Assembly: GCF_058153355.1 (NCBI RefSeq)
Contig: NZ_CM177019.1
Direction: 5' to 3' (one strand)
DNA length: 64,000 nucleotides
Position numbers and translations under genes: made by a program. The notes under the pieces are model-generated. The model did not search any database and was not told the DNA's origin. It saw only the letters and a program-made list of their open reading frames with translations. Shown here piece by piece: positions 3,543 to 64,000 of this stretch. Each line of letters begins with the position of its first letter. The stretch's first letter is position 1.

Positions 3543-4151
3543 ATGAAAATGAAACAACAGTATCAGACCCGTTACGAGCTGCTCCATGAAAACTACCAGA
3601 AATGGCTGACCGGCTTCACCCGGCACGCCGTATCATGGGGCGTGTGTCATCCGAATATCTACTATTTCCATAATCTGACGCCCGGGTGGGTGTCATTCAA
3701 TGGCGAAAAACCGGAGATTGCCATCGTTCCCCAGAGTCTGCACCGGCTGATTTATGGTCCGGACAAACGGAGCTCCCCGTCCCTGGATGATGATCTGGTG
3801 GTGAATTTATGCACCAGCGAACACCTGCTGGTTCATCATCCGATGCTGGAAGGGATCCTGCTGTCTGAATGTGAGCGCCTGAAGCAACATTCTCTGGCAA
3901 ACAAACTGATCAGCCTCTTCCGTCAGTTTGGCGGCACGGAGTTACGTCTCAAACTGGTCTGGCTCTGCTGGCTTGACTTAATGACCGGAAACAGCCTTGA
4001 CGACTGGACGAAAAACCTGAAACACAAATCAGAAAAAGATCTGGAGCAATGGATCATTGCACGTCAGGGTCAGAGTGAACCACTGACAAATCTGATGGAT
4101 CAGTACGTGCTTATGGCATACCGTACATCGGTTGATGCCGCTCACAGTTGA
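3543..4151 (+). CDS. hypothetical protein (CP4-like element)
   Basis: Long ORF with GAGGAA SD and an ATG start; no recognisable motifs. Confidence 0.45.
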   Translation: MKMKQQYQTRYELLHENYQKWLTGFTRHAVSWGVCHPNIYYFHNLTPGWVSFNGEKPEIAIVPQSLHRLIYGPDKRSSPSLDDDLVVNLCTSEHLLVHHPMLEGILLSECERLKQHSLANKLISLFRQFGGTELRLKLVWLCWLDLMTGNSLDDWTKNLKHKSEKDLEQWIIARQGQSEPLTNLMDQYVLMAYRTSVDAAHS

Positions 4152-48367: not shown

Positions 48368-50122
48368 CTACGGTGCTGGTATTATAGTCTCTGCTCCAAA
48401 CCAATTTCCAAGTGTTGTCAGTGCCGCAGGTGACAAAGCTTGGGTGAAAAGGATCGCAAGGCGCTTTTGGGGTCTGGAACAAGCGACGTAAAACAAATTT
48501 CGGTTTCGTTCAAATGAGTCTTGCTTATCGACTGGAATCGTTTGGGCTCCAGCGAATTCCAACATTTCTCCGAAGTTATACTGGTTCCACCCACGCCCAA
48601 CAACAACCAGGACATTCTCAAATTCAGCACCTTTCACACCATGTTTAGTTTCGAATGGAGAATATCCATCAAGATAACGGCGAAGTGATCTGACCTCCGA
48701 ATAGGGAATATTTTTCAGCTTTTCAAGTTCTTTTAATCTTCGGGGCATTTCAACATCAGCCGTTCTGTCAAAATGGAGTAACTCCTGCTCAAATTATTCA
48801 ACCTTATCTGGAAGTCTTGGCTTCCGTTGAGCACGGATGAACTCAATTACGTCGCCAATTGTACCAGTTTCGCGGAGAGCAAGAAGTTGCGTCATTACAT
48901 TGTGCCAACTCACCTTATCTGAATGTCTACGCAACAGTGGTGTAATACCGCCAAGCGCATTAAACATCTCTCCATACTTACGAGCGGTAAAGGCATCACA
49001 GGCGGGTTCCAGTTTGTCTACAAAAAAGGCTATATGTTCATGTTCCTTTTTCGTGAAGGATTCATTGTATTTAAACGCTGCCACTATATTTGAATAGCCC
49101 TGCTGATTGGCTAAAAGTCGATGGGTCAACATGAGAATTTTGGTGTGATTGGGAGAAAAGTCCCAACCATCCTGCTCCAACGTTGTTTTAACTCGTTCCA
49201 GAGTAGCCTGGCCTTCACATAATGGTAAATCACCACTCCAGTGCACGCCTTTTTGACGAACTCCTTGCCAATTGTTTGTATGGAAAACGCGTACTAAACC
49301 TGTAGCTTCGGGATCTTTAACACACTGCGGTAGCTCAGGTCTCATACGATTAAGGGCATCAACAATTATCTTGTCCGAACGAAAATTGGCTTCTTTACCT
49401 ATTTCAACCACGTCCTGATGTTCCAGCTTTCCACATCCACCACCATAGATTTTTTGCCAATGGTCGCCGAAAAAACCAAATAAAGGTGCTCTAGCTTGTC
49501 CAAGAAAATGCCGTTTAATTGCCTCAATCCAGTTTTTATCAGTGTCCTGGTACTCATCGACCAGAATGATTGGAAAGCGTTCTGCAATCACTCTACGGAA
49601 TTTTTCGTGCTCCATGAGTGAGACAGTTAAAGAAAGAACATCGTCATGATGAAGAGTTATACGATGGTCGCGAATAGAGCGATGTCCAAGATTATACTCA
49701 ACACTACGATTCCCAAGGCTTCCACCAACTTCTTCGAGCTTTTCTGTCCATGTTGGCATTGTCTCAATCAGTTCTCTCAACGGTTTTTGAAAGCTGCTTA
49801 TTAACGACCAACAGAACGCATGATTGGTATCACAAAAAACGATGGGGCTTCGATCTGTTCGCGCGACGATTTCATCCTTCGCCACGTTAGTAAAGGTGAT
49901 GCAGGCAATTTGCTGGCTACGTTTTTCAAATAAATCCTTATTTCGCTCAATCAAGAATCGAAGTGCCTTAATAAGGGAATACGTTTTACCCGCACCAGCG
50001 CCAGCTTCCAGCCGGAAGCTTCGTCCTTCACTGAGGCAAGCATACATAGATTCCAAAGCTCGCTGGCTAGCAGCTTCGGCGGGCGAATGGATCTCAGACA
50101 TCAGCGCTGGCTCCTTCTTCAA
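48368..50122 (-). pseudogene. UvrD/PcrA-like SF1 helicase (GajB-like), interrupted by one in-frame TAA
   Basis: Motif I AGAGAGKT and motif II ILVDEYQDTD in the 442-aa ORF; after the TAA at 48794..48796 the same frame continues into the C-terminal helicase domain (YVACSRPQKRLAIL). Confidence 0.7.
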
Positions 50123-52166
50123 TACTAGTTGTGGCTTCTACAACTTGCGCCAATACTGGATCTTGTGTCATAAGCTCATTGCTGCCAGCTAACCAGCGGA
50201 TTCCATCGACTATGTATTTGGGGGCGTTCCATTCTGTCTCTGTAATCGCGTATTTCAATGCAAATTCTGATTTTTTCCACTCAGACGCTTTATCACGGGC
50301 TTCTATTTCCAGTTCCTGAGAATTTCTCCCTACCAGCCCGAATAAAGCCGAATTTGCAAGGATAAATGCATCTTCGAATGTGCGTCCGCAGGGGCCATCT
50401 GTCACTTCTGCACATTGATAGGCAATACGATTTCCATTACGAGCTTTATCATCGTCACTCCTGGCAATCAAACCAGCTAATGTGAAAGGGGTATCTTCAG
50501 AGAACCATGCTTTCAAACAAGCATTACTGGAATATGTACCAAGATGAACAGCACATGCCTGACCTCCTGCTCTTTGGACTGCGTCCAGATCTGTTATGAT
50601 CAGACTCTGAAGCTCAAGAAACGCTAATAACTCGAAGAACAAATGAGCGTAAGCACCGCCGACTTCCATCACCGTTGCGTACTGGCTCGACAGCTTCGGT
50701 CTCTCTGGTTCGGCTGATTCTAGTTTTTTGATGATGACGGGAAGCAATAATCGCTCGCTTAACCCCTCGACGAGAATCGCTTTATCTGCGAAAAACAGAT
50801 CACAACGTGTCAACGTCATGTATTGATGAAGGAATTTTTTATCTTCAATTAGAATATGATTCAGCCCTTTACGCAGATCTTTAATTTTGGTTTTTCGGAC
50901 ACCTTCCTGAGTCCCCTGTGCTGGAGCCCCCAGAAAATAGCGAATACTCTCGAAACCAGCCGCATTGGCAATGTGAGACGAGTGTGTAGACACGACAAAT
51001 TGTACAGGCCAGGGTCTCCTGTCCTCAGTGCCATCCACCAGTTGTTGTGCAATTTTGGCAAGTTGACGAATAAAAACCTCCTGCATTTGTGGATGCAGAT
51101 GGGCTTCTGGTTCTTCAATGAATATCAGGTGTACACCCGGCTCAGTAACTTCAGCACAAAATGCTTTATAGAAACCAGCTAATTGCAAGAGAATAAATAT
51201 CAGATTACGTGTACCAAGACCGTTATATGACTCCGGTAATGCGATTCCGCTATAACCTGAATAGCGAACTTTCGTGAAGTTTGATAGCAACTTGCTAACA
51301 TCGAGCAATGTTTCAGTATGTAACTCCTGTCCTCCCAATCCTGGGTATCCAAAAGTTTCTAGAGCCGGAATCAGACTGTTGAGCTGGTTTCCGAAGTTTG
51401 TGTCAATTTGAGTCTGAATGTCCTGAACTGCACCTTTCAATGCATCAGCAATTTGTTTATCAGCAGCTCCCGCAGATGCCGAAGAGGCTGTTGCGAAAAG
51501 ATTTTCAACCGTTTTAGCCAGTACATCGGATTCTCGGGACGTCACATCATCAAGTCCTCGCTGAGCGTTGATAAAGCCCGATTTGACCAGACCGCGCAAT
51601 GCACTAGGTGGTAACTCGCGACGATTATCAGGATCGTTGGGATCTTCAGCCCATATTTTCACACAGAAATTATTAGGGATACGTTCTCGCAATATACGGA
51701 GGAAAGCGAGGCGGTCTTCTCTAGAAAGTGGCATTTCAGTCTGACTTTCGAGAAATTGTGTCAGATGGCCATCTTTCAATTCGTATCGGACTACTACCTG
51801 CGCTTCAGAACACGCGGGATCCAAATCGATAACAAAGGGACTCAATGGACCTAATTGAGGTTGTGCAGGGTCGTACTGGAATTTCAGTCGAAGTTCAATG
51901 GCGGGAATAAGTTCTCGAACGAGATGATCTTCCATGCCTTCCTTAAGTGCTTCCAGAACATCACAAAAACGGTCGTAGCAGGAACTGGAAAAGTCTTCAA
52001 GTTGGAAAGTAGCACTACCATCTGCTAAGAATCTGCGTATTATTTCTGAGAGTGATGTTTTTCCGCTGTTGTTTCGTCCAACAATGACGGTCGTCTGTTC
52101 CTCCAATACAAGCTCTGCATCAGCTAAAAGACGGAAGTTTTTAATTTCGACCTGATGAATGTGCAT
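50094..52166 (-). CDS. OLD-family ATP-dependent endonuclease (ABC-type ATPase + Toprim; GajA-like)
   Basis: Walker A GRNNSGKT, Walker B/D-loop LIFIEEPEAHLHP, Toprim motifs ILVEGLSE and ITDLD; its end overlaps the helicase start by 29 bp. Confidence 0.8.
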   Translation of the reverse strand: MHIHQVEIKNFRLLADAELVLEEQTTVIVGRNNSGKTSLSEIIRRFLADGSATFQLEDFSSSCYDRFCDVLEALKEGMEDHLVRELIPAIELRLKFQYDPAQPQLGPLSPFVIDLDPACSEAQVVVRYELKDGHLTQFLESQTEMPLSREDRLAFLRILRERIPNNFCVKIWAEDPNDPDNRRELPPSALRGLVKSGFINAQRGLDDVTSRESDVLAKTVENLFATASSASAGAADKQIADALKGAVQDIQTQIDTNFGNQLNSLIPALETFGYPGLGGQELHTETLLDVSKLLSNFTKVRYSGYSGIALPESYNGLGTRNLIFILLQLAGFYKAFCAEVTEPGVHLIFIEEPEAHLHPQMQEVFIRQLAKIAQQLVDGTEDRRPWPVQFVVSTHSSHIANAAGFESIRYFLGAPAQGTQEGVRKTKIKDLRKGLNHILIEDKKFLHQYMTLTRCDLFFADKAILVEGLSERLLLPVIIKKLESAEPERPKLSSQYATVMEVGGAYAHLFFELLAFLELQSLIITDLDAVQRAGGQACAVHLGTYSSNACLKAWFSEDTPFTLAGLIARSDDDKARNGNRIAYQCAEVTDGPCGRTFEDAFILANSALFGLVGRNSQELEIEARDKASEWKKSEFALKYAITETEWNAPKYIVDGIRWLAGSNELMTQDPVLAQVVEATTSIEEGASADV

Positions 52167-52303: not shown

Positions 52304-53802
52304 TCACTCGGTCAAAGAGGCCTCACGAACATCATCCGGTTGAGGTTGGCACTCTTTCCATCGTCGAATAAGCGTTGCTACACAGGGATTACCCGCCAGT
52401 TGATTCATTCTGACCCAGTCAACATCCACTAATCCAGCCAGAAGTTCAGGATTTAGTTCCCCTTGTAATGGGTGCCACTGGCGAATACTGGGCTGGCGCT
52501 GAATTTGAGGTTGAAGGGGAGCCAAACTCCCGACGATAACGTAATTTTGTTCTGGATCATGCCAGAGTCGTGTAATGCCAGGTATGTTTTTCAACCAGTT
52601 TCGAGGATCACCTAAAGGTAAATCAAAAACACGAGAGAGTAATTTATTCCATGACGCTATTAATGACGAACTGGCTTTCTTTGCCAATTTTTTCTCACCT
52701 GCCAGGAGTGCATTTTTTCTTTCTGGCCATTTGGAAAAAATATAACTTTTTAAAATATCGTAGGTAACATTAAGTTCATTATTGTAATAATACTCACGCA
52801 AAGCACAATTCCACAACTCGCACAGCAAGTCTAGTTCACGCATGAGTGTATTTTTATTGGTATCTGATAATTCACCTTCCTCATTAAGTTGCGCTATATA
52901 AAAAGACAGTATCTTTGTATCTGGTAAGAGCCAGTGGTTTAGTGAGAACTGCTGACTTTGAGTATCAAGAACAGTCATTAATGCATCTAAATTCTCAGGG
53001 ATCATATTAGGGGTGTCGTATTTCGGATCCTGAAGAAGAATGGATATTTCTTCCATTCTATGAATAATTATTGTCAATCTCTGAGCAAATCTGGTTAATT
53101 TATCTTCACTGCTGCCAAAACCTTGCGCTATTGATTCAGGCCGATAAGTATAAGGCCATTTTTTATTTAAGAGAGTAAGAAGAGCCTCGACAGAGGTATC
53201 AAACAGTTTCAGCCTTTCATCGCAGGCTTTAACTAAATCCGGGCAAGAAGGATTAAAAGGTAAAATTACTGGGCGGTCTTGTTCAGCGGTGAATAAATAT
53301 CCTTCGGTGATAACCAATAGGTCATGAGTCAGTAAGTCTTTCTGTTCTGTCAGGCTTGTACTGATTCTTGTTTCTTTGCAAAGTAAAAGATGCTTCAACG
53401 CAAGTTCTTTGTACGCAACTTCGGTATTACGCGCCAATGCATCAAGACAGGTCTTTTTCTCAAGATCTTGAATGGCATAGTCGTAATAGCAAGAATCTAT
53501 CGCAGGGATGAGTCGGGTAGTCCCATCGGGAGTATCCTGCTCAATCAATAAATTATCAACAACAGAATCACCACTAAGATCAAACGGATTAACGTTGATA
53601 TGCTGGCACGCAATTTTAGTTCTTAGATTCTGAGTTAACGGATAGCGGTCATCAATTATACCACGGATCTGATCTAACAAAACAAGTATGCATATAGAGC
53701 TGTCTTTTTCCAATTTTTCAAATGATGAGGGTTCTGAATCCGGTAATAATTCCAGCTGTACATCAGGATACTTTTTGTTCAACACCTTTTGTATCTGCGC
53801 AC
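52304..53802 (-). pseudogene. large hypothetical protein gene, 5'-truncated at the junction with the IS66 remnant
   Basis: About 500 codons of unique sequence; the N-terminal 66 codons of the track ORF are antisense IS66 sequence, and no native start codon is retained. Confidence 0.5.
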
Positions 53803-54843
53803 TTCCCCGTGAAACCCGGGTCATCCAACCGGAAGAAGAATGCTGCCCGGCCTGTGGTGGCGGGCTCAGTCCTCTGGGATGTGATGTGTCAGAACAACTG
53901 GAGCTTATCAGCAGCGCCTTTAAGGTTATCGAAACACAACGTCCGAAACTGGCCTGTTGCCGGTGCGACCATATCGTGCAGGCTCCGGTGCCTTCAAAAC
54001 CCATTGCACGCAGTTATGCCGGAGCGGGGCTTCTGGCCCATGTTGTCGCTGGAAAATATGCAGACCATCTGCCGTTATACCGCCAGTCAGAAATATACCG
54101 TCGTCAGGGCGTGGAGCTGAGCCGTGCCACACTGGGGCGCTGGACAGGTGCTGTTGCTGAACTGCTGGAACCGCTGTATGACATCCTGCGCCAGTATGTG
54201 CTGATGCCCGGTAAAGTCCATGCCGATGATATCCCCGTTCCGGTCCAGGAGCCGGGCAGCGGTAAAACAAGGACTGCCCGGCTGTGGGTCTACGTTCGTG
54301 ATGACCGTAACGCCGGTTCGGAAATGCCTCCGGCGGTCTGGTTCGCGTACAGCCCGGACCGGAAAGGTATCCATCCACAGAATCATCTGGCCGGTTACAG
54401 CGGAGTGCTTCAGGCCGATGCTTACGGTGGTTACCGGGCGTTGTACGAATCCGGCAGAATAACGGAAGCCGCATGTATGGCTCATGCCCGGAGAAAAATC
54501 CACGATGTGCATGCAAGAGTGCCCACCGACATCACCACGGAAGCCCTGCAGCGTATCGGTGAACTGTATGCCATCGAGGCAGAGGTCCGGGGCTGTTCAG
54601 CAGAACAGCGTCTGGCGGCAAGAAAAGCCAGAGCCGCGCCACTGATGCAGTCACTGTATGACTGGATACAGCAACAGATGAAAACACTGTCGCGTCACTC
54701 GGACACGGCAAAAGCGTTCGCATACCTGCTGAAACAGTGGGATGCACTGAACGTGTACTGCAGTAATGGCTGGGTGGAAATCGACAACAACATCGCAGAG
54801 AACGCCTTACGGGGAGTGGCCGTAGGCCGGAAAAACTGGCTCT

Positions 54844-56667
54844 GTGTGTCACGAAGGAGTACTTATGGCAACAATGTGAAAATTGCAGCATAAGTTATCC
54901 ATGCTCTGAGGTGGGTGGAGGTGGGCCCTCCGGTCAGGGTTTACAGGAGCACTGACCAAACGACCCGGTGCTGCTTCATTCTAAGGAATGAGGTGGTGAG
55001 CGACTCGGGAAAAGGCAGAGATCTACTGTCACGTGGGGTTCGGGAAGCTGAACGAAAGTAAACTGTCCGATGAAGCATCGAAATCTTAGATGATGTCAAA
55101 ATGGGGCCGTACAGCCGTCCCCTGATAAGCGCAGAAGACACCTGCTTACTGACTGCGCGGCATCCGGTGTGAAGGCAGCAGGATCCCGGGCCAGACCATC
55201 TCAGGGAACGTGAGAACCTGTTTCCGGCACGTATCGGGAAACAGGGGCGGACCCATTCGTAGTAGTGATGAAAGATCTGTAATGGGTCTGGAGCGAAGGG
55301 ATGGGGATCACATTCATTGCAGAAGACACAACCCAAAAGGGGATGACGTAACTGATGCAACGAAAATCATTTGAAATACCAAAAGCACTGGTCTGGGCAT
55401 CATATCTGGATGTGCGTCGCAACAAGGGAGCCCCCGGATGCGACGGGCAGACTTTGAAAATGTTCGACCAGCAACGTGATGGCAATCTATACAAGATCTG
55501 GAACCGGCTATGTTCGGGAACATGGTTTCCGCCACCAGTGCTGGAAAAACGGATCCCGAAGTCGAATGGCAAGGAACGCATTCTGGGGATCCCAACAGTA
55601 TCCGATCGAATTGCTCAGGGAGCGATAAAACTTTTCATGGAAGAAAAGCTTGACCCGATTTTCCATGCTGATTCATATGGTTACCGACCAGGCAAATCAG
55701 CTCATGACGCTCTGAAACAATGTGCCATCCGGTGCTGGCGTTATAGCTGGATACTGGAAGTGGACATCAGTGCGTTTTTCGACCATGTGAGACATGATCT
55801 GGTGCTCAAAGCTCTGGAACACCACGGGATGCCTAAATGGGTCATCCTGTACTGTCGACGCTGGATGGAAGCGCCAATGCAGAGTTGTGAAAATGGAGAA
55901 TTAATAACCCGAACACGAGGCACTCCGCAGGGCGGGGTCATTAGTCCACTACTTGCTAACTTGTTCCTTCACTATGCATTTGATTTGTGGATGGAAAGAG
56001 AATATCGGGGGGTACCGTTTGAGAGGTACGCTGACGATATTGTAGTACATTGTTCACGAATGAGTGATGCAACAAGGCTGAAGAACAGGTTATCGGAGCG
56101 CTTCTCGGAAGTCGGGCTGGTCCTGAATGCAGGGAAAACGAATATCGCCTACATTGACACGTTTAAAAGGAGAAACGTCGCAACGAGTTTCACCTTTCTC
56201 GGATATGACTTCAAAGTGCGTACGCTGAAGAATTTCAAAGGCGAACTGTACCGAAAATGCATGCCGGGTGCGTCAAATGCAGCAATGCGCAAAATAACAG
56301 AAACAATCAAGAAGTGGCGTATACATCGCTCAACAGCTGAGAGTTTGCTGGATTTTGCGAGGCGCTACAATGCGATAGTGAGAGGCTGGATCGAGTACTA
56401 CGGAAAGTTCTGGTCCAGAAATTTCAACTATCGACTGTGGAGTGCAATGCAGTCACGTCTGCTCAAGTGGATGCAGTCTAAATACAGACTTTCGAACCGG
56501 AAGGCTCAGCGAAAGCTGACGCTGGTAAGGAAGGAGTATCCGAAGCTATTTGTTCACTGGTATTTACTACGTGCATCAAATGAGTGATCAAGAGCCGTAT
56601 GACGCGAGAGTGTCACGTACGGTTCCGTGAGCAGCCGGGGAGTGAAATTCTCTCCGGCTGACTCGAC
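54844..56667 (+). mobile_element. bacterial group II intron (1824 bp) in sense orientation within IS66 tnpC
   Basis: Starts GTGTG immediately after the exon 1 homology and ends ...AC before exon 2; domain V-like GAGCCGTATG...CACGTACGGTTC at 56592..56625; contains the RT/maturase ORF. Confidence 0.75.
55355..56587 (+). CDS. group II intron reverse transcriptase/maturase (no endonuclease domain evident)
   Basis: RT motifs including GTPQGGVISPLLANLFL and YADDIVVH, plus a maturase X domain (RGWIEYYG); 410 aa. Confidence 0.85.
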   Translation: MQRKSFEIPKALVWASYLDVRRNKGAPGCDGQTLKMFDQQRDGNLYKIWNRLCSGTWFPPPVLEKRIPKSNGKERILGIPTVSDRIAQGAIKLFMEEKLDPIFHADSYGYRPGKSAHDALKQCAIRCWRYSWILEVDISAFFDHVRHDLVLKALEHHGMPKWVILYCRRWMEAPMQSCENGELITRTRGTPQGGVISPLLANLFLHYAFDLWMEREYRGVPFERYADDIVVHCSRMSDATRLKNRLSERFSEVGLVLNAGKTNIAYIDTFKRRNVATSFTFLGYDFKVRTLKNFKGELYRKCMPGASNAAMRKITETIKKWRIHRSTAESLLDFARRYNAIVRGWIEYYGKFWSRNFNYRLWSAMQSRLLKWMQSKYRLSNRKAQRKLTLVRKEYPKLFVHWYLLRASNE

Positions 56668-56852: not shown

Positions 56853-58796
56853 TCAATACGGTTCTGGCGAGCCGCTTACGTTTAATCGGGAAATCTCATA
56901 TTTTCGGTTCATCATTAATGGCAGAAGGAAGCGTTGATGCTGTTGACGAGAAATTTCACCAGCACGGAGCAGTTTTTCTAGGTTGCGTAACTGGAAACCC
57001 GCATGCGCCATATCATCATTGTTCTCTGTATTGGCCTGAAAAGCGGAAAAGTAATAATGCCGTGATTCCAGCAAATATAAACAGGTCAGATCCATATTTT
57101 TGCCAGATTCAGGCAGGCTGAAATCCAGATTCACACCATTCGTCGCAGAGGCGGTCTGAGTCAGCACAATGACAATACGCCGGGAGGCAAATGCGGCCTG
57201 ATAAGCATCACTAAAGCCCTTTTTCTTCTGACATTCTGCGGTTAACAGACAAATCAGCGCAGGCTCATTATGTATGCTCACTGGGATAAACACATCAGCA
57301 AAATTTTTTAGTAGAGGATCATCAGATAAAGGTTGTTCCATTTTTAACCATGCGAGGTATTCTCTACTTTGTGTTGCTATTGTAGTGGTAAGCCATTTTC
57401 TTAAATAGGCTATGGAATTCACGAAAGCAAGATGCCCCCGGTGTTGAGGTCTTTTTCCCGCAAGATCCAATACATTAAGCAATTTTAGCAGTATATTTTT
57501 TCGATATTCTGATTCGAAATCTGATGAGGGGTCATCGCCATTCTGGAAAAAATCGGGGGCTAGCGAAGCGAGCAGATCAACACAATGCGGGTTATTCTTT
57601 ATGCTATTGAAATCTTGAATCTCAGCATTCAGTTGTGTGTTTCTGATATTTTCTTTGCTGTTATTGATCTCTTCAATAGCTAAATACTGCAACTGGAAAT
57701 CATCAGCCGTCTGGACATAAGGTATCGGTTCTTTAAACCACTCGACAGGTCGTTTTTCAAAAGTTGTTCCCAGAAAACTTTGTGTAACAGCAGGGTTGCG
57801 TGCTTCTGCAATATAACGAAGAGCTGAATTAATCCACCGGACATCGAAGTGATTACAGGCTCTTTCAATATATGACGTAGCCGACAGTGCAAAGACAAGA
57901 TTACGACTGGCGAGAGAAAGCAGCAGACCTTCTGCCGTCGTGGGCAGAAAGGCACGTTTGATCTGTATCCGTAACGGATCGATATCCGTATCTGAGACAT
58001 TCTGTTTCAGCAACCAATTGGTCAAGCCAAAAATACTGGCATGAGTATTTGGCAAAATATTACTTTTCCTTAATTCCCGTAGTTCCGGCAGGTCAGTACG
58101 CGGTAACAAAAATCGGGACATATTGGGCAGGGTTGAGCCGTAGTATGAAGGCCTGTAATCATTAACGGGGTCGAACAGAAGTCGGGTTAACTTTTTAATG
58201 TATTCATACGCTTCATCTTCACTTGCAGTCAGGTCGGTCAACATTAGGCTAAACTGTCGAATGAATTTTTCCATCAAGCGTAAAAAATCACTGATGTCGA
58301 TAGTCTGATCGCTATCCTGAAGCGGAGAGTCTGGCCTGATAATTTCGTATCCATGTTCCGCTTTCCGCATAATAAGCCGTTCACTGGTCACCAGTTGATC
58401 GGAACGGAATAAATAATGCTCACCAAAGGGTTTATTATCCAGATATTGCTGAAGAGGAATAACCAGCGATCTGGCATGTGTTAAATCAGCATGTTTTTCT
58501 GTTAATGCACTATCCAGATCATTAATAAATTTTTCTAGACGTTCACGGATCATAGGTGCAGGTTCCATTTCAACATACTGCATACGTTGTAGTAATCTGC
58601 GTCCCCCGTCGAGCAACTGACCCAGACACTCAGGTGGTTCCTGAACCCATTGCGCCTGTGCCAGATACTCTTGTAATACCTCAGACTGGTAATCAAATTC
58701 ATCGATGAAAATGATGTAATTACGCAGCTCTTTGCTGGACATTTTTACTTTGCGACGCCCATCGTAAAACGATGAAACCATCTTTTGAGTCGTCAT
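56853..58796 (-). CDS. large hypothetical protein; C-terminal 8 codons and stop supplied by the IS66 terminus
   Basis: 647-aa ORF; N-terminal IIFIDEFD resembles a Walker B / DExx motif; the last codons (SGSPEPY) are encoded within the IS66 right inverted repeat. Confidence 0.5.
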   Translation of the reverse strand: MTTQKMVSSFYDGRRKVKMSSKELRNYIIFIDEFDYQSEVLQEYLAQAQWVQEPPECLGQLLDGGRRLLQRMQYVEMEPAPMIRERLEKFINDLDSALTEKHADLTHARSLVIPLQQYLDNKPFGEHYLFRSDQLVTSERLIMRKAEHGYEIIRPDSPLQDSDQTIDISDFLRLMEKFIRQFSLMLTDLTASEDEAYEYIKKLTRLLFDPVNDYRPSYYGSTLPNMSRFLLPRTDLPELRELRKSNILPNTHASIFGLTNWLLKQNVSDTDIDPLRIQIKRAFLPTTAEGLLLSLASRNLVFALSATSYIERACNHFDVRWINSALRYIAEARNPAVTQSFLGTTFEKRPVEWFKEPIPYVQTADDFQLQYLAIEEINNSKENIRNTQLNAEIQDFNSIKNNPHCVDLLASLAPDFFQNGDDPSSDFESEYRKNILLKLLNVLDLAGKRPQHRGHLAFVNSIAYLRKWLTTTIATQSREYLAWLKMEQPLSDDPLLKNFADVFIPVSIHNEPALICLLTAECQKKKGFSDAYQAAFASRRIVIVLTQTASATNGVNLDFSLPESGKNMDLTCLYLLESRHYYFSAFQANTENNDDMAHAGFQLRNLEKLLRAGEISRQQHQRFLLPLMMNRKYEISRLNVSGSPEPY

Positions 58797-58798
58797 GA

Positions 58799-59572
58799 TC
58801 AGCAGGTGTTGCTTTTCGTCACGCCAGGCAATGGCGGGCAGAATGCGCCTGACCCAGACGTGGCGACGGAAATCTGCAACTCGTTGCCTGGCTTGGCTGC
58901 CTGCGTGAGTTCATGTTCTTCGCCATATTTTTCTTTTTGTTTCTTGGCTTCTTTTTCCAGCAATTTGATATTCTGAATCAGAGTTATCTCCACCGCTGCG
59001 CATGATTTGATTAATGACTCTTTCTCACTGGCGATGGCCGTCTGAAAACGCGTCGGATATCCTTTCAGCGATTTGTTAATATGCAGTATGTTTTTGCAAT
59101 TTCTACGCAATTTGTCGGCGATATCCTGAATGGCAAACAAATTTCTGTCTTCCAGGATATTGATGGAGTCAAATGGATCGGGAAGTGAGTCTGCGGAAAT
59201 ATTATTCTCATGAGGCAAGGGGGTGGCCTCGATGGCAGAAACGATCTGTTCATCTTGTGCATAGAGCACGCTGACGGTGAATGGTTCCCCGTTACTGTCT
59301 TTATGCGCTGCCGTTTTCTCATAAATGTCGTGCAAAATATTCCAGCGATGGGTAACCAGAATGGCTTGAGAGCCTGATTTTTTTATCGTCTCCAGCGCCG
59401 GGAGAGCGTTATCGGCATAGCCAGAGCGGTAGAGTGAGCTGGTTTTTCCGCTACCCGTAGGCCCCTGAAGCTGACAAAATCCTGCGATACGACGGGATGT
59501 TTTGGATTTTTTTGCCTGAGAAAGGGTGTATTCAATAACGGCATTGTAGGAACGTATTAAAGGGGCACTCAC
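58799..59572 (-). CDS. P-loop NTPase (helicase motif I-like GPTGSGKT)
   Basis: 257-aa ORF with Walker A GPTGSGKT; stop lies 2 nt before the ATG of the downstream 647-aa ORF. Confidence 0.5.
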   Translation of the reverse strand: MSAPLIRSYNAVIEYTLSQAKKSKTSRRIAGFCQLQGPTGSGKTSSLYRSGYADNALPALETIKKSGSQAILVTHRWNILHDIYEKTAAHKDSNGEPFTVSVLYAQDEQIVSAIEATPLPHENNISADSLPDPFDSINILEDRNLFAIQDIADKLRRNCKNILHINKSLKGYPTRFQTAIASEKESLIKSCAAVEITLIQNIKLLEKEAKKQKEKYGEEHELTQAAKPGNELQISVATSGSGAFCPPLPGVTKSNTC

Positions 59573-60075
59573 ATTTCACCTCATCCGTGTCAGGTTATCG
59601 AAGAGTAGAATTTCAGCAAATTCATGTTACACCGAACGGGTATCATTTCAATGTTTAATAATAATTTCCCCTTATAAAACAACGCTTATAATACATTCGC
59701 AGGTCAGATGATTTATCGGTGTGTTATTTGTTTGAATTTGGTGTTGTGGTTTTCTTTTTTTAACAATCTTCGATCTTCCTTCCACGACTTCCCCTTGCCG
59801 TTTTCAACCGAAAGCGGTATCTTTCACTTGCACCTGCAAAATCAGGTGCCGGGATTGGAACCCCGAAATGTAACCATACTGGCGACACGTGACGCGTCTG
59901 CGTCTTTTTTTATGTCGCGCGCTTAGCTACACCAAAATTATGGTGGGCTGGGCGGGGGCACCGTAAGGTGCGCCGGTTCCAGTATGGCCGGTAGTTCCAA
60001 CCTCGTTCAGTCCACCACCCATGAGATTGGAACCTCTGGTGGTGGTTTTCAAACCACATACTGGAGGCTGCCTTT

Positions 60076-60543
60076 ATGGCTACGATCCCCACTCAGACAC
60101 ACCCGTTACTTGCTGTTCCCTTCAATGCTGCCACAGATTTTACCGTACTGGCAGACCACTGTGAAAACTTCGCCGAAACCCTGATCGAAAGCGACGACCC
60201 GGTGCTGCGGCTGGCGCTTTGCGGGCGGCTTGCCGCCTGTCTGACTCTGCTGCAACCCACGCTGAACGAACCCATCCCGTCCCATCTGACTGACAGCCTG
60301 ACCGTTGATGCTCTACCTGCCGATATGCCCCGATTTGTCCCCGACGCTGAATTACTTTGTGACTACTCACTGACGCTGGCGCAACTTCTTATCGGGCAGG
60401 GGATGCTGCCAAAAATGGAGCAGACGATAACTGGCTTATTATGTGAACTGGTCTGGTATTTTGCCGCTGAAATGAAAGCCCCGCGTTGGCTGCGTACTGC
60501 CGGTGGCGTGAAGTTTATCGATGGTGTGGAGGCCAAAGCATGA
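60076..60543 (+). CDS. hypothetical protein (155 aa)
   Basis: GGAGG SD; stop overlaps the ATG of the Ner-like gene (ATGATG/TGA). Confidence 0.55.
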   Translation: MATIPTQTHPLLAVPFNAATDFTVLADHCENFAETLIESDDPVLRLALCGRLAACLTLLQPTLNEPIPSHLTDSLTVDALPADMPRFVPDAELLCDYSLTLAQLLIGQGMLPKMEQTITGLLCELVWYFAAEMKAPRWLRTAGGVKFIDGVEAKA

Positions 60544-60746
60544 TGCAGTCTGACTGGCATCCTGCCGACATTATCGCCGGGCTGAAAAAACGTGGCACTT
60601 CGCTGTCAGCGCTTTCGCGTCAGGCTGGGCTGGCGTCCTCCACGCTGGCTAATGCGCTTACCCGCCGCTGGCCCAAAGGTGAAAGATTGATTGCCGAAGC
60701 GTTAGATGTTGCGCCTGAGAACATCTGGCCTTCGCGCTATCGCTGA
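60540..60746 (+). CDS. Ner/Nlp-like DNA-binding regulator
   Basis: 68-aa product; WHPADIIAGL...STLANAL...WPKGE...IWPSRY matches the Ner/Nlp family from recall. Confidence 0.75.
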   Translation: MMQSDWHPADIIAGLKKRGTSLSALSRQAGLASSTLANALTRRWPKGERLIAEALDVAPENIWPSRYR

Positions 60747-61093: not shown

Positions 61094-61351
61094 ATGTATA
61101 CAACTCGCCTGAAAAAGGTCGGCGGATCCATCATGCTGGCGGTTCCCCCCGCCGTGCTGAAAACGCTGGAGCTGTCGACGGACAGCGAAGTGGGTATGAC
61201 CATTGATAATGGCTGCCTGATTATTGAACCCCAGAAACGGCCCCGTTATTCGCTTGAGGAGCTGTTGGCGCAGTGCGATCCGCACGCAGAAATGAGCGAA
61301 GAGGATCGGGAATGGATTGATGCGCCTGCGGTGGGCAAGGAGATCCTGTAA
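61094..61351 (+). CDS. pemI: PemI-like antitoxin (AbrB/MazE fold)
   Basis: GGAGGTG SD; 85-aa product closely resembling recalled PemI (TTRLK.VGGS.ML.VPPA...SL.ELLAQCDP). Confidence 0.85.
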   Translation: MYTTRLKKVGGSIMLAVPPAVLKTLELSTDSEVGMTIDNGCLIIEPQKRPRYSLEELLAQCDPHAEMSEEDREWIDAPAVGKEIL

Positions 61352-61684
61352 ATGGACAGAGGGGAAATCTGGCTGGTTTCACTGGATCCGATTGCAGGTC
61401 ACGAGCAAAGCGGAAAACGTCCGGTGCTTATCGTATCGAAGGCATCGTTTAACAAGCTGACCCGGCTACCCGTTGTTGTTCCCGTTACCAGCGGTGGAAA
61501 CTTCGCCCGTGCAGCCGGTTTTACCGTCTCACTGGACGGTGCGGGAACAAAAACAACGGGCGTTATTCGCTGCGACCAGCCCAGAACCATTGATATGGGA
61601 GCCCGGAGCGGAAAGCGACTGGAACGTATACCCGATGCTGTCGTGAATGAAGTGCTGGCCCGACTGGAGGCCATTCTGAGCTGA
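61352..61684 (+). CDS. pemK: PemK-like mRNA interferase toxin (MazF/PemK family)
   Basis: 110-aa product starting immediately after the pemI stop; RGEIWLVSLDP...GKRPVLIVS pattern. Confidence 0.85.
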   Translation: MDRGEIWLVSLDPIAGHEQSGKRPVLIVSKASFNKLTRLPVVVPVTSGGNFARAAGFTVSLDGAGTKTTGVIRCDQPRTIDMGARSGKRLERIPDAVVNEVLARLEAILS

Positions 61685-61740: not shown

Positions 61741-62122
61741 TAACGACAAGTGATTAAAAAATCCTTTTGCAGGTAAAAACAGTTTTTCCTTTCTCCGCCA
61801 GCGGTACTGGCATAGTCTCCCCCTTGCCCTATGCTGTCGTTGACAGCGCCACGCTTCACAACCTGAAAGAAGCGCCTGTTATCAGGAGGTTGAGCCCTTT
61901 ACCGGTGCAGACCTTTGCAAACACCGGGTCGCAGAACATCGCGACGGAGGCCAGAGTTTTAACACGATACGTCCTTTTACTGCGCCAGCCTGCTGGTCTG
62001 AATCTGCCCCGCGCCGGAATTTTCCCGGTCAGCTTATATTTGCTGACACCCTCAGCACCTTTTACCTCACGGGCTGCGGCATGCATTTGCCGCAAGGCAT
62101 TTGCTGACGCGTGCCCGTAAAA

Positions 62123-62244
62123 CTGCACCAGACGGTAAATTTTCAGACGCTGCACCAGACCCGTGCGTCACTTTAACCGCGCAGAGCGGGAAAGTGACGC
62201 ACGCAATCCCTTTCGACCTGCACCAGAAAACTCAACTGCGCCAG
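62123..62244 (+). repeat. cluster of 4 CTGCACCAG(AC) motifs upstream of the recombinase gene
   Basis: Copies at 62123, 62150, 62218 and (CTGCGCCAG) 62236; a 12-bp-arm palindrome GTGCGTCACTTT / AAAGTGACGCAC at 62163..62202 lies between them. Confidence 0.7.
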
Positions 62245-62535
62245 CTCACGGCTGGAGTCTGACACCGCCTTTTCAGGCCATTTACCTATAAGGAGAACAT
62301 GAATCGATACCGAGGCGGATCCGGACGATCCGGGGGATAACCCGCGCAAGCGGGCGGCTGCTCAGAGAGCACAACCGAAGCCCCACCACACCTCAACGGC
62401 TGCCGCCCCGGCGCTCAGGTATCGTTCGCAGCCCCGACAAAAAAACAGGGGCTATCGGCCTGTGCGCCGGGGAAAGCTGTATCAGTGTTGGTTTTTTGGG
62501 GGATGAGTTTGCGGCAATCATGAAAAGGGGAATGT

Positions 62536-63423
62536 ATGGGGATACTGGAGCAGGAAATGACGCGACTGGCGCAGCAGGCGGGTGGCAGCTACAAAACTGT
62601 GGATGACCGCATCAGGCTGGCGCAGCGGTTTTGTGAGCGTCTGGTTCTGGCGCAGAACGTACAAATCCGCCGGGTGGAGCAGCTTAAGGCGCGGCATATT
62701 GAAGGCTATGTTCGTGAACGGCTGGCGCAGGGCATCACAAAGCGTTCCCTGCAAAATGAGATGGCGGCGGTGCGCTGCATTCTGAAACAGGCCGGGCGTG
62801 ACAGGCTGGCGCAGAGTGAGCGGCTGAATAACCGCTCGCTGGGATTGTCCGGAGCATCCCGTAACGGGACGAAGCTGGCTATTACACTGGAGCACTATCG
62901 TGATGTGCTGGAGACCGCCCGCGTAAAAGATCCGGGGCTGGCGGCAGCGCTGGAGCTCTCAAGGTTGATGGGATTACGTTCGCAGGAGGCGGTGCAGAGT
63001 GTACAGTCGCTGAAAACGTGGATACAGGCGCTGGAGCGTGGTGAGTCCCGGTTAACCGTGGTGTTCGGCACCAAAGGCGGACGGCCCCGCGAGACGATTA
63101 TTCTTGATGCTGGCGTAGTTAAAAAAGCGCTGGATAATGCGCTGGTGGTGGCTGAGGATCGTCACGGCAGGCTGATAGATAAGCCCGATCTGAGAAGCGC
63201 GATGAAATACTGGCACAGCCAGGCGTCGGGTCTTGGTTTAACTGGCGCATATTCCCCGCACTCGTTGCGCTATGCCTGGGCGCAGGATGCTATTCGTCAT
63301 TATCTGGCGCAGGGATTTTGTGAGAAGGAAGCGCTGGCGATGACGGCGATGGATTTGGGTCACGGCGACGGGCGCGGGCGGTATGTGGCGCAGGTTTACG
63401 GGCGAAAGGGGGATGCTGATTGA
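62536..63423 (+). CDS. tyrosine recombinase (phage-integrase family, 295 aa)
   Basis: Box I-like TKGGRPRETII and box II-like HSLRYAWA...LGHGDGRGRYVAQVY (catalytic Tyr); no N-terminal arm-binding domain evident. Confidence 0.75.
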   Translation: MGILEQEMTRLAQQAGGSYKTVDDRIRLAQRFCERLVLAQNVQIRRVEQLKARHIEGYVRERLAQGITKRSLQNEMAAVRCILKQAGRDRLAQSERLNNRSLGLSGASRNGTKLAITLEHYRDVLETARVKDPGLAAALELSRLMGLRSQEAVQSVQSLKTWIQALERGESRLTVVFGTKGGRPRETIILDAGVVKKALDNALVVAEDRHGRLIDKPDLRSAMKYWHSQASGLGLTGAYSPHSLRYAWAQDAIRHYLAQGFCEKEALAMTAMDLGHGDGRGRYVAQVYGRKGDAD

Positions 63424-63466
63424 TAGCTTCAGACTTGCAATATGATGTTATTCATCGTTTTCCGTA

Positions 63467-63562
63467 CAAAATTATTTGCCTCAAATAATTTTGGGTGATT
63501 TCCTATTAATCCCGGGTTATTCATCGTTATTCACCGAAAAAATTTCTACGTAGAAATTTTTT
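63467..63562. promoter_or_regulatory. two perfect palindromic operator-like sites (12-bp arms with 3-bp spacer; 13-bp arms, no spacer) with associated direct repeats
   Basis: CAAAATTATTTG-CCT-CAAATAATTTTG at 63467..63493 and AAAAAATTTCTAC/GTAGAAATTTTTT at 63537..63562; TTATTCATCGTT direct repeat at 63449 and 63518. Confidence 0.6.
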
Positions 63563-63618
63563 GTTCGATTTCCTCTCAATAAAAATGCTTCTGAACGGTA
63601 TGGCCTATTAACAGGCCT

Positions 63619-63881
63619 CTGGTGCAGTATTACGGTATTTTACTGATGATTGCGCCAGCAAAAGGAAAAGGCCAAATAATGGTAAAGGGCGACTAAGGGT
63701 AACAGCGCCAGACCGGAAAGGGCCAAAAGGCTAAAAGGCCTTAACACTGGCGCAGTTTGATGTTTATCCAATAATATCTGGCGCAGTCCTGACATAGACA
63801 GGTGACAGCGGACTGGTGCAGTAAATGGTGACATTGAACTGGTGCGGATACGATGTATTGGGAAATCAGTTTCTGGTGCAG
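63619..63881 (+). repeat. array of 6 direct CTGG(T/C)GCAG motifs downstream of the recombinase gene, inverted relative to the upstream cluster
   Basis: Copies at 63619, 63747, 63778, 63813, 63839 (CTGGTGCGG) and 63873; spacings 26-35 bp for the last five. Confidence 0.7.
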
Positions 63882-63906
63882 ATTATCTGGCAGCTATCGT
63901 CTGGAG

Positions 63907-64000
63907 ATTATTCACTGTGAATAATTTTCGTTATTTGCCTATTGATTCATAATATATTGATAGGTTTTCGTACAAAATTATTCTACGTCGAATAATTTTG
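63907..64000. promoter_or_regulatory. further palindromic sites at the window edge
   Basis: ATTATTCAC-T-GTGAATAAT at 63907..63925 and CAAAATTATTC-TACGTC-GAATAATTTTG at 63973..64000; the half-site resembles the 63467 palindrome. Confidence 0.5.

Follow-up and report, generated by a model that had tools for sequence, protein, structure and literature searches.

A 64-bp orientation-fixed palindromic DNA module between a PF12835 gene and a converging integrase gene in enterobacterial islands

The palindromes clustered at the right end of the 64,000-nucleotide stretch analysed here (the window) represent a palindromic DNA module of 64 bp and fixed orientation, not described before, of which three copies are complete and one has decayed. 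They lie in a spacer between the 3′ ends of an Xer-like tyrosine-recombinase-fold gene (62536..63423, plus strand) and of a P4-type integrase gene that converges on it and lies next to a tRNA. The product of the first gene, 295 aa in length, matches the PF12835 (3e-60) and PF12834 (4e-36) profiles, and the arrangement of PF12835 gene, spacer and integrase was seen in Salmonella and E. coli and at 79 loci across Enterobacterales. Judged from sequence comparisons, the region appears to be non-coding, cis-acting and under selection, and action as double-strand DNA fits better than action as RNA.

A preliminary description had placed four perfect palindromes in this stretch. Three are present as claimed, at 63467-63493 (CAAAATTATTTG-CCT-CAAATAATTTTG, arms of 12 bp), 63537-63562 (AAAAAATTTCTAC abutting GTAGAAATTTTTT, arms of 13 bp) and 63907-63925 (ATTATTCAC-T-GTGAATAAT, arms of 9 bp), as is a direct repeat of TTATTCATCGTT at 63448 and 63517. 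The fourth, at 63973-64000, exists but is not strictly perfect: it has 14-nt arms with one mismatch or, equivalently, perfect 11-bp arms round a 6-nt centre, and it is truncated at the end of the window. In 577 bp there are thus three perfect palindromes whose arms reach 9 bp or more, plus a near-perfect fourth, where ∼0.02 perfect ones are expected, and only seven sites with such arms are found in the whole 64-kb window, three of them in 63424-64000. In Markov simulations that kept the dinucleotide content, three such palindromes per 577 bp arose in 1 of 3,000 runs, and in none of 3,000 when the simulation was restricted to AT-rich blocks. The AT-richness reported for the 550-bp stretch holds at both ends and not in the middle (GC 32% at 63424-63600, 47% at 63600-63900 and 27% at 63900-64000). 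The absence of a convincing open reading frame was borne out, the longest encoding 64 aa (63640-63834, minus strand); as a gene this frame was rejected, for it overlies a block whose indels in relatives are not multiples of three. No Rfam family matched 63424-64000 at gathering scores, and the homologous spacer of locus L002 gave only chance-level matches at E up to 5. The region was not found to lie inside a known IS or prophage terminal repeat, the alternative named beforehand. An attR repeat of tRNA-Asn was sought within the window to delimit the island, and the matches were three tRNA genes only.

Each module follows one plan: a left flank (TATTSATMGG-TTTTC), a variable A/T-rich inner palindrome and a right flank (GMTTTCC-KATYAATA). 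Both flanks are conserved but imperfectly symmetric, with T-rich internal mismatches on one strand, and the inner stem is variable yet always self-complementary, with an invariant TT-N8-AA core. Module M1 (type T1; 63449..63511, plus strand; inner palindrome 63467-63493) starts 26 nt past the stop codon of the PF12835 gene; with a covariance model its plus-strand score is 65.2 bits and its minus-strand score 36.4 bits. Its orthologues start at +26 or +27 in at least 10 loci. M2 (type T3; 63518..63581, plus strand; inner palindrome 63537-63562; 58.8 bits by the covariance model) is the most conserved module, and the TACGTA centre of its inner palindrome is invariant. M3 (63898..63950, plus strand) is degenerate: the inner palindrome at 63907-63925 and the right flank (TTTGCCTATTGAT) are kept, the left arm is truncated, and the score falls below the covariance-model threshold. 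M4 (type T4; 63955..64000, plus strand; inner palindrome 63973-64000; 53 bits) is 3′-truncated, the window ending at model position 46 of 64; in relatives it continues into GTACGCTTTCCGATTAATA, followed by a GC-rich bidirectional terminator and the integrase stop codon, ∼117 bp past the window.

The covariance model returned 135 matches, which correspond to 73 modules in 27 related loci, all within the spacer, with none elsewhere in 788 kb of loci or in the rest of the 64-kb window. This confinement excludes REP/BIME- or MITE-type dispersed repeats. Seventy of the 73 modules score best on the strand of the adjacent PF12835 gene; the other three come from a neighbouring island in inverted position. 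Orientation relative to the adjacent gene is uniform wherever that gene is known. In the seed alignment (19 modules), 95% of the inner helix is paired, 12 of its 15 pairs have changed on both sides, and its covariation is 0.42 versus 0.17 in shuffles and at most 0.12 in slid controls, figures inflated by the origin of the seed modules in a palindrome scan, as are those of the larger alignment by its fitting to the model. The inner palindromes comprise ∼15 sequence types, and the length of their centre varies among copies (3, 4 or 6 nt). Loci carry 0 to 5 modules, adjacent copies follow a 69-70 bp period with a linker of ∼6 bp, and the left and right groups of modules form inverted repeats round ∼370 bp. 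Signs of DNA-hairpin dynamics are the exact, clean deletion of the inner hairpin in loci L033 and L018 and a flipped loop in one module copy of L001. Hybrid and deleted copies are joined within the conserved flanks.

The inner stems contain G.T and A.C mismatches in similar numbers (50 versus 56), and this absence of strand bias speaks against either RNA in folded form or single-strand DNA as the acting form. As RNA, three of the four copies in the window fold weakly (−9.6 to −13 kcal/mol, z about −1 to −1.7), M2 at −9.6 kcal/mol with z = −0.95, and a full M4-type copy in L002 folds at −22.3 kcal/mol (z = −6.2). As DNA hairpins the modules are small and weak (−4 to −12 kcal/mol).

Orthologous modules are 87-95% identical, compared with 75.7% identity at third codon positions of the adjacent gene, and M2 orthologues reach a mean of 95.4% against the same 75.7%. 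Identity above that of synonymous sites indicates that the modules are under purifying selection. Compact relatives with spacers of 243-300 bp keep a G-rich block and an array of 9-mers, described below, and have zero modules; together with the copy number of 0 to 5, this indicates that the modules are accessory. Their presence tracks the clade of the PF12835 protein and not the integrase type. No correlation was found between modules and three candidate regulators (orf155, Ner-like (HTH_35) and PemIK genes): orf155 and Ner-like genes are found both beside modules and in their absence, and neither gene accompanies the modules of L036 and L044. Arm-type sites of the integrase were rejected as an identity for the modules, since the TATTGAT of the L002 attL arm occurs in only 3 of ∼25 module-bearing loci and modules also accompany integrases that share only 35-43% identity with the L002 enzyme. 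In distant mode, the homologous L002 spacer found matches in 497/5,426 complete E. coli genomes (∼9%). A plasmid source was discarded, as the one "plasmid" of the near search is a 473-kb Salmonella record with chromosomal-type genes (AMP nucleosidase). The phage search for the region found nothing, and distant searches of plasmids and viral contigs brought up no modules outside the Salmonella island known before.

The preliminary description overlooked the two most conserved components of the spacer, a G-rich block (∼63660-63741) and CTGGYGCAG 9-mers. The block (63660..63741, plus strand), purine-rich with repeated AAAGG/AAGGG units, is the most conserved part of the spacer and is flanked, together with the 9-mer array, by the modules. 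Within it lies the near-invariant TAAGGGTAACAGCGCCAGACCGGAAAGGGCC, of which an inverted box-like CAGCGCCAG (63703-63711) forms part. Among loci that have a converging integrase and a PF12835 protein of 65% identity or more, nearly all carry the block, those with 243-300 bp spacers included. It has no covariation-supported fold, and neither it nor the palindromic modules matched an Rfam family, even at E up to 5. A P2/P4 cos site was sought in it and gave no match with up to 3 mismatches. To the left of the block lies a 9-mer box CTGGTGCAG (63619..63627, plus strand), followed by TATTACGG; it is similar to sequence at the gene's 3′ terminus (GTGGCGCAGGTTTACGG at 63385) and, in inverted form, to 62115-62132. 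At the left edge of the block is an inverted box-like 9-mer TTGCGCCAG (63650..63658, minus strand; reverse complement CTGGCGCAA), and compact relatives have a plus-strand box at the corresponding position. To the right, five plus-strand 9-mers span 63747..63881 (starting at 63747, 63778, 63813, 63839 and 63873, that at 63839 being the variant CTGGTGCGG).

The CTGGYGCAG 9-mer is present in 24 copies in the window, compared with 1.04 expected, and is strongly polar. Between −800 and −300 of the gene start it occurs on the minus strand only (135 to 0 in 49 loci), as in the upstream array of five copies in the window (61980..62244, minus strand; at 61980, 62123, 62150, 62218 and 62236); downstream it is in plus orientation (about 280 to 3). 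This polarity reverses at an EFASI motif that precedes the PF12835 gene. Intervals between 9-mers are uneven (25-40 bp), and the series continues into the coding sequence, where six in-frame copies of CTGGCGCAG each encode Leu-Ala-Gln, and is mirrored upstream. The upstream region was considered as an inverted copy of the downstream core and this was rejected, with only the 9-mers and short flanks common to both. In the subfamily of 58-64% identity, no second polar motif came near the CTGGYGCAG signal. A DnaA-box-like TTTATCCAA at 63765 varies among relatives (TATCC, TATAC, TATTC or absent).

The PF12835/PF12834 Xer-like protein is a candidate MOB_M-type relaxase. PF12835 has been used as a relaxase-like signature ("INT_DTR_like", PMC10484663), and the catalytic-type residues R148, K180, H242, R245, H276 and Y288 are invariant. 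A homologue is encoded on an MPF_G plasmid that is listed in PLSDB with no relaxase type; the protein has no PDB homologue. The EFASI motif (Rfam RF02957; 62299..62428, plus strand; 119 bits, E = 3e-24) lies ∼108 bp upstream of the gene. Of 12 loci scanned, 11 have it ahead of the homologous gene, and these 11 include two plasmid loci but not the Caballeronia plasmid L010. On a Pantoea MPF_G plasmid the structured motif STAXI (RF01728) occupies the equivalent downstream position. The unit sits at the integrase end of an integrative, probably mobilizable defence island. Members of the family terminate islands with defence systems (Gabija here; NACHT and HEPN proteins in strain N17) or T6SS clusters, and in E. 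coli they end defence, T6SS and other islands at tRNA-Asn, tRNA-Asp and tRNA-Phe. It had been suggested that a cognate protein for the palindromes might be encoded beyond the window; the next gene in every close relative is the converging P4-type integrase and no regulator.

Our tentative interpretation, which we hold to be quite possible though short of probable, is that the modules are a duplex or cruciform-prone architectural element of the mobilization module of the island, accessory to a conserved core. As double-strand DNA, prone to cruciform formation and intrinsically bent, the modules would offer sites for recognition by some protein and would shape the spacer round the core of G-rich block and polar CTGGYGCAG array. 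They may thereby modulate a complex built by the Xer-like protein on the 9-mers for transfer or recombination, the link of modules to 9-mer array being one of position only, and would be accessory tuning elements and not the essential site. A bolder form of this proposal seems improbable to us: the modules would extrude as cruciforms whose bases are four-way junctions, bound by the same PF12835 protein that would coat the 9-mer arrays mirrored round EFASI, to give a new relaxosome, replication-initiation or recombination complex of a very common island family. Positive supercoiling, expected between converging genes, would disfavour the extrusion of short A/T-rich stems. The fixed orientation and the T-rich mismatched segments on one strand are unexplained by a purely symmetric duplex model, and the inner stems are too unlike among paralogues for all of them to be read by one sequence-specific protein.

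Several other readings were weighed against this architectural role. The modules may act at the RNA level, as weak intrinsic terminators, insulators or 3′-end stabilising hairpins for the converging PF12835 and integrase transcripts, which we consider unlikely but still to be reckoned with. The site between converging genes and the fixed orientation fit such a role, as do the start of M1-type modules 26-27 nt past the stop codon in many loci and the T-rich tract that follows the hairpin on the gene strand, and the T1 copy of L002 was flagged as terminator-like (17 pairs, then TTTCCTATT). An intrinsic terminator has a stable GC-containing stem and then a U-tract; in the window copies A/U-only stems (−9.6 to −13 kcal/mol) are followed by just three consecutive U. 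However, G.U pairs are not in excess over A.C among the mismatches, and three of the four window copies fold weakly. Sites resembling terminators show no clear enrichment, a single GC-rich bidirectional terminator suffices in compact relatives, the presence of up to five copies is more than termination seems to need, and the most conserved module is kept in its loop and flanks as well as in its stem. The lack of strand bias among wobble pairs also counts against folding on a transferred or displaced strand after mobilization or rolling-circle replication, as single-strand origins, priming sites or Frpo-like promoters, and we regard this reading as improbable. It would account for the orientation fixed relative to the putative relaxase gene and for the hairpin potential retained despite sequence divergence; the island looks mobilizable, with the PF12835 gene and an upstream EFASI resembling the oriT-mpsA of SGI1 (PMC6414798, PMC8409611), the structured STAXI holds the same position on the MPF_G plasmid, and the module flank contains a TTGATA that resembles a −35 element. 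Against it, the module types share no conserved −10-like element at a suitable distance, one orthologue (L001) has a flipped loop, the hairpins are weak as DNA and compact relatives are without modules. Duplex-type symmetry, in agreement with the mismatch data, high sequence conservation and perfect or nearly perfect palindromes would suit operators for a dimeric repressor of a spacer promoter, for example one for a small RNA directed toward the terminator, and one promoter-like site (TTGATA-16-TATTCT) lies inside M4. Such sites are not above shuffles, though (2 in the window versus 1.7 expected; 4 versus 2.4 in L002), in L011 and L012 the key T is missing from the −10 of the M4 site, and inner palindromes and centre lengths are unlike between copies. 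The preliminary description had favoured repressor operators or a replication or partition locus; no regulator gene co-occurs with the modules, which are flanked by the PF12835 gene and the P4-type integrase, and the operator reading is in our view doubtful.

More doubtful still is a role in the excised island as replication origin, with iterons and an A/T-rich unwinding element, or as partition centromere. Repeated 9-mers, A/T-rich palindromes and the DnaA-box-like TTTATCCAA are found in combination, SGI1-type islands carry an iteron origin (PMC8409611), and the tandem palindromes recall sopC and parS. Yet the 9-mers are irregular, lie within coding sequence and are mirrored upstream, the DnaA-like box is not conserved, and the palindromes are not identical, unlike repeated ParB-binding palindromes. 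No rep or par gene is annotated on either side in related loci, and true plasmids, with whose ori/par regions a comparison had been suggested, are without the region, as are phages. There is a slight chance that the modules are non-functional, self-propagating palindromic repeats made in place by slippage and unequal recombination, given the variable copy number, the 69-70 bp tandem period of adjacent copies, the hybrids and deletions that end in the conserved flanks, the copies that lack exactly the hairpin, and the compact relatives that have none. Orthologues far above synonymous sites (87-95% versus 76%), a fixed orientation and positions conserved across genera oppose this. The slightest chance goes to substrates of the PF12835 recombinase, whether attC-like folded sites, dif/lox-like cores or boundaries of an invertible switch. 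The adjacent tyrosine-recombinase-fold gene, the conserved outer inverted flanks round a variable palindromic centre as in attC, the 13-6-13 layout like that of lox/dif (11-14 bp arms, 6-bp TACGTA or TACGTC centre) and the inversion of left and right module groups round ∼370 bp are in line with this, but there are no cassettes between modules, the flanks misfit RYYYAAC/GTTRRRY, the arms are unlike between copies and without strand bias, and the PF12835 gene is intact in relatives without modules. A fim-like invertible switch was rejected, since wherever the G-rich block and 9-mers are present they point the same way relative to the gene; the sole reversed case belongs to a separate, inverted island.

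Among known systems, the oriTs of MOB_M elements (SGI1 oriT-mpsAB, pIGRK oriT-mobK and pCW3 oriT-tcpM) are likewise non-coding, rich in inverted repeats and placed beside a tyrosine-recombinase-fold mobilization gene on a mobilizable element, and the pIGRK oriT contains a G-rich tract (PMC8152469), as the spacer does. A structured element lies upstream of the gene in both cases, EFASI here and a three-stem-loop oriT with sgm-sRNA in SGI1 (PMC6414798, PMC9299015). The SGI1, pIGRK and pCW3 oriTs are all upstream of the relaxase gene, whereas the spacer is downstream and the upstream place is held by EFASI; the spacer was rejected as a MOB_M oriT on this ground. The SGI1 oriT is GC-rich, in contrast to the A/T-rich palindromes here. 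The PF12835 protein has an N-terminal SAM-like (core-binding-type) domain, and MpsA, MobK and TcpM, reported to be without one (PMC9299015), are set apart from it by these descriptions. STAXI and EFASI, which surround "integrase" genes of MPF_G elements, share a neighbourhood with the modules and are structured non-coding motifs; STAXI, however, is a GC-richer multi-hairpin pseudoknot motif unlike the modules.

REP/BIME elements resemble the modules as imperfect palindromes clustered in 3′ intergenic DNA, often between converging genes, with varying copy number and hairpin-mediated rearrangement. REPs are ∼35 bp long, GC-rich, present at hundreds of sites and linked to RAYT transposases; the modules differ in being 64 bp long, A/T-rich and limited to one spacer of one island family. 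With attC sites the modules share conserved outer inverted flanks, a variable self-complementary centre of similar size, a tandem arrangement and an adjacent tyrosine-recombinase gene, but they lack gene cassettes, the R″/R′ consensus (their flanks being TATTSATMGG and KATYAATA) and the bottom-strand signature. The neighbouring enzyme matches PF12835 and PF12834, with no sign of IntI in the profile search. F sopC and P1 parS are also tandem short palindromes in non-coding DNA of a mobile element; here no ParA/ParB genes are nearby, the units differ and the copies lie between two recombinase genes.

The backbone of PF12835 gene, converging integrase and tRNA is also present in many other Enterobacterales, and a 2026 preprint proposed PF12835-type proteins as the commonest chromosomal relaxases. 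The DNA on which PF12835-type elements act is almost unstudied. The present analysis provides a parts list for this island family: EFASI, two mirrored polar 9-mer arrays, the G-rich block and the accessory palindromic modules. If the modules are only terminators or structural spacers, the finding is an ordinary one. If the parts are determinants of transfer or maintenance, they would explain the movement of many "immobile" islands and would give sequence markers for them.

Sequence inspection confirms the positions that the preliminary description had given for the four dyads, and for the TTATTCATCGTT repeats, of the flagged stretch (63449-64000). Three of the dyads are perfect palindromes with arms of 12, 13 and 9 bp, as had been claimed for all four, but the fourth (63973-64000), which has 14-nt arms and is cut by the window end, contains one mismatch. 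The 64-kb window has only 7 sites where a perfect hairpin has arms of 9 bp or more, and 3 of these lie in this stretch. Dinucleotide-preserving simulations reached three such sites per 577 bp in 1 of 3,000 runs, and in 0 of 3,000 when drawn from AT-rich blocks only. The description of the stretch as AT-rich holds for its two flanks (27-32% GC) but not for the central part between them (47% GC). No credible ORF was found in it, in agreement with the earlier reading.

A phage search with the flagged region gave 0 matches, and a plasmid search gave one, a 473-kb Salmonella "plasmid" record with chromosomal-type genes. The near search matched 39 of 5,426 complete E. coli chromosomes, and a distant search with the homologous spacer of locus L002 matched 497 of 5,426 complete E. 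coli genomes. In the relatives from the near search the non-coding stretch is ~700 bp long and extends to the stop codon of a P4-type integrase gene, which converges on it and adjoins tRNA-Asn; by homology, the integrase gene is predicted to end ~117 bp past the window. A scan with the Xer-like PF12835 protein encoded upstream recovered 79 loci in many Enterobacterales, with a converging integrase in ~40. In order, the island backbone consists of orf155 and a Ner-like helix-turn-helix gene, then in some islands a toxin-antitoxin pair; next come the EFASI motif and the PF12835 gene, and after the spacer the integrase gene and a tRNA. E. coli islands bounded by this backbone lie at tRNA-Asn, tRNA-Asp and tRNA-Phe.

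We aligned eleven close loci, compared sub-blocks with all loci by BLAST and inspected compact relatives, which showed that the spacer has two layers: a conserved core, and accessory palindromic modules inserted on both sides of it. A covariance model of the module was built from a 19-sequence alignment seeded by palindrome-scan matches. Searching 788 kb of loci and the window with this model gave 135 matches that resolve into 73 modules in 27 loci, all within the spacer between the PF12835 and integrase genes and none elsewhere in the sequence searched. The better-scoring strand is the gene strand in 70 of the 73, and the other 3 lie in an inverted neighbouring island. Each 64-bp module opens with TATTSATMGG-TTTTC and closes with GMTTTCC-KATYAATA, and these enclose an inner stem of 13-15 bp with a centre of 3-6 nt between its arms. 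In the seed alignment the inner stem is 95% paired, as compared to 37-46% in slid controls, and 12 of its 15 pairs have changed on both sides. There are ~15 inner-stem types, with an invariant TT and AA eight nucleotides apart in the seed. Flank sequences are conserved and only partially complementary; between flank and stem lie four positions per side, T-rich on one and the same strand, which give the module a polarity. The window carries M1 (type T1, 63449-63511), M2 (T3, 63518-63581), a decayed M3 (~63898-63950) and M4 (T4, 63955 to past 64000), and lacks the T2 module and ~105 bp of spacer present in most relatives.

Orthologous modules are on average 95.4% (T3), 90.8% (T2), 88.1% (T1) and 86.8% (T4) identical, while the adjacent gene of these loci is 75.7% identical at third codon positions and ~94-95% at the first two. 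The excess over third positions indicates purifying selection on the modules. The data establish the anatomy, distribution and symmetry of the modules; the palindromes are real, and the region is under selection. Copy number varies from 0 to 5 per locus, with adjacent copies 69-70 bp apart, and the endpoints of module deletions and hybrids fall in the conserved flanks. Two loci (L033 and L018) have lost exactly the inner hairpin between two GTAC tetramers, and in a third (L001) the T2 loop is the reverse complement of that of its orthologues, changes that are characteristic of DNA hairpin or cruciform dynamics.

If the modules acted as one folded strand, either RNA or transferred single-stranded DNA, more G.T wobbles than A.C mismatches would be expected on that strand. 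We counted 50 G.T and 56 A.C mismatches. The most conserved module, M2, has a predicted RNA fold of −9.6 kcal/mol (z = −0.95) and a DNA fold of −7.8 kcal/mol, and a strong fold is seen only in the full M4 (−22.3 kcal/mol, z = −6.2). The lack of a G.T excess and the weak M2 fold favour a symmetric double-strand reading, by protein binding or as a cruciform, which leaves the fixed orientation of the modules unexplained. A live rival is that the modules are terminators or RNA stabilisers, for which the main case is the T1 copy, starting 26-27 nt past the stop codon.

Within the spacer, non-coding conservation is highest in a G-rich, purine-rich block (~63660-63741) of repeated AAAGG/AAGGG units that holds the near-invariant TAAGGGTAACAGCGCCAGACCGGAAAGGGCC and is accompanied in the core by copies of the 9-mer CTGGYGCAG. 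In Brenneria-type loci the spacer is 243-300 bp long and is made up of the core plus a GC-rich bidirectional terminator, and nothing else. No RNA fold of the block is supported by covariation. Some relatives (L005, L006) show canonical G-quadruplex spacing in it. The oriT of the MobK plasmid pIGRK also needs a G-rich tract (PMC8152469).

The 9-mer occurs 24 times in the window (1.04 expected), with 16 copies in 61980-63881 and five in the flagged region. Across 49 loci with a PF12835 protein sharing at least 65% identity with that of the window, the stretch from −800 to −300 relative to the gene start holds 135 minus-strand and 0 plus-strand copies, and that from −100 to +1700 holds 3 minus-strand and ~280 plus-strand copies, so the switch in orientation falls at EFASI (62299-62428). 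The 9-mer does not occur in the protein subfamily at 58-64% identity. Its six in-gene copies are all in frame as Leu-Ala-Gln, residues not conserved in that other subfamily. The layout of the 9-mers is reminiscent of mirrored arm-type sites flanking a core, or of the multiple transposase-binding sites at transposon ends.

The PF12835 gene (62536-63423, plus strand) encodes the "recombinase" of the preliminary description, a 295-aa protein matching PF12835 (3e-60) and PF12834 (4e-36); its catalytic-type residues (Arg, Lys, His, Arg, His and Tyr) do not vary across nine homologues. PF12835 serves as the signature of MpsA-type "relaxase-like integrases" (PMC10484663). MOB_M relaxases are reported to show kinship with tyrosine recombinases and to be the commonest chromosomal relaxases, 96% of them lying near an integrase, alone or with MPF_G systems (2026 preprint, 10.64898/2026.01.13.699239). 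A Pantoea plasmid typed MPF_G carries a PF12835 homologue; PLSDB gives that plasmid no relaxase type. A PDB search found no sequence relative of the window protein, and it keeps an N-terminal SAM-like domain that MpsA, MobK and TcpM are reported to lack (PMC9299015), so that its identity as a MOB_M relaxase is only likely.

EFASI (RF02957, plus strand), listed as a small RNA, precedes the PF12835 gene by ~100 bp in 11 of the 12 loci scanned, two plasmid loci included (copies besides that of the window: L002, L006-L009, L019, L031, L040, L055, L076 and L082). Its position parallels that of the structured oriT and sgm-sRNA upstream of mpsA in SGI1 (PMC6414798, PMC9299015, PMC8409611), and by this analogy the transfer origin of these elements may be, or overlap, EFASI. 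In a more distant subfamily (L008, L009, L055, L076, L082) STAXI (RF01728) occurs upstream of EFASI. On the Pantoea MPF_G plasmid (L008) STAXI is also found directly 3' of the PF12835 gene (3943-4093), the slot of the palindromic modules in the window.

The density of dyads had been taken as typical of repressor operators or of a replication or partition locus. The region is not demonstrably a set of operators: promoter-like sites show no enrichment, and the modules co-occur with no regulator. Nor is it a plasmid-type origin or partition locus, as nearby rep and par genes are lacking, the irregular repeats run on into a coding region and the DnaA-like box is variable. Constant orientation among relatives speaks against an invertible switch, and an attC site was dismissed for want of a consensus, cassettes and a strand signature. 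Integrase arm sites were rejected, as were dispersed REP or MITE repeats, the modules being confined to the spacer and searches of plasmid and viral contigs giving nothing new. No Rfam family matches the spacer. We tentatively propose, as a possibility that falls somewhat short of even, that the palindromes are accessory architectural modules, duplex or cruciform-prone, around a core of G-rich block and polar 9-mers that would serve the Xer-like protein.

Upstream, the cargo carried in the window includes a Gabija defence system, a group II intron and an IS66 transposase. The Gabija genes are on the minus strand, gajA (50094-52166, E = 3e-289) and gajB (48794-50122); the latter spans positions 4-435 of a 579-position profile and may be truncated. 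An IS66-family transposase ORF (53688-54893) is directly followed by a group II intron (Rfam matches at 54917-55033 and 56590-56667) with a reverse transcriptase/maturase ORF (55355-56587). Between the intron and the isrK/C4 cassette lie adjacent minus-strand ORFs of 647 and 257 aa (56853-59572), which may be an uncharacterised defence pair; PADLOC matched neither, and Pfam gave no match to the 647-aa ORF and only weak AAA_11 and DEAD matches to the 257-aa ORF. The cassette (59830-60746), common to many related islands, comprises isrK (59830-59910) and the C4 antisense RNA (59936-60022), a P1/P7 immunity-type RNA pair, then 3' a conserved ORF of 155 aa that matches no family, and the Ner-like HTH_35 gene. 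The latter is separated from the 9-mer array by a PemI/PemK (MazEF-type) toxin-antitoxin pair (61100-61684); in other islands this slot holds RelE or HigA modules, or is empty.

Frameshifts or truncations of the PF12835 or integrase gene mark many E. coli backbones (L005, L091 at tRNA-Asp; L090 at tRNA-Asn; L004), some of which adjoin type VI secretion clusters. The G-rich block and modules are still kept beside the broken genes, which suggests decaying, immobilised islands. The flagged region is part of the backbone conserved across a widespread, and probably mobilizable, island family.
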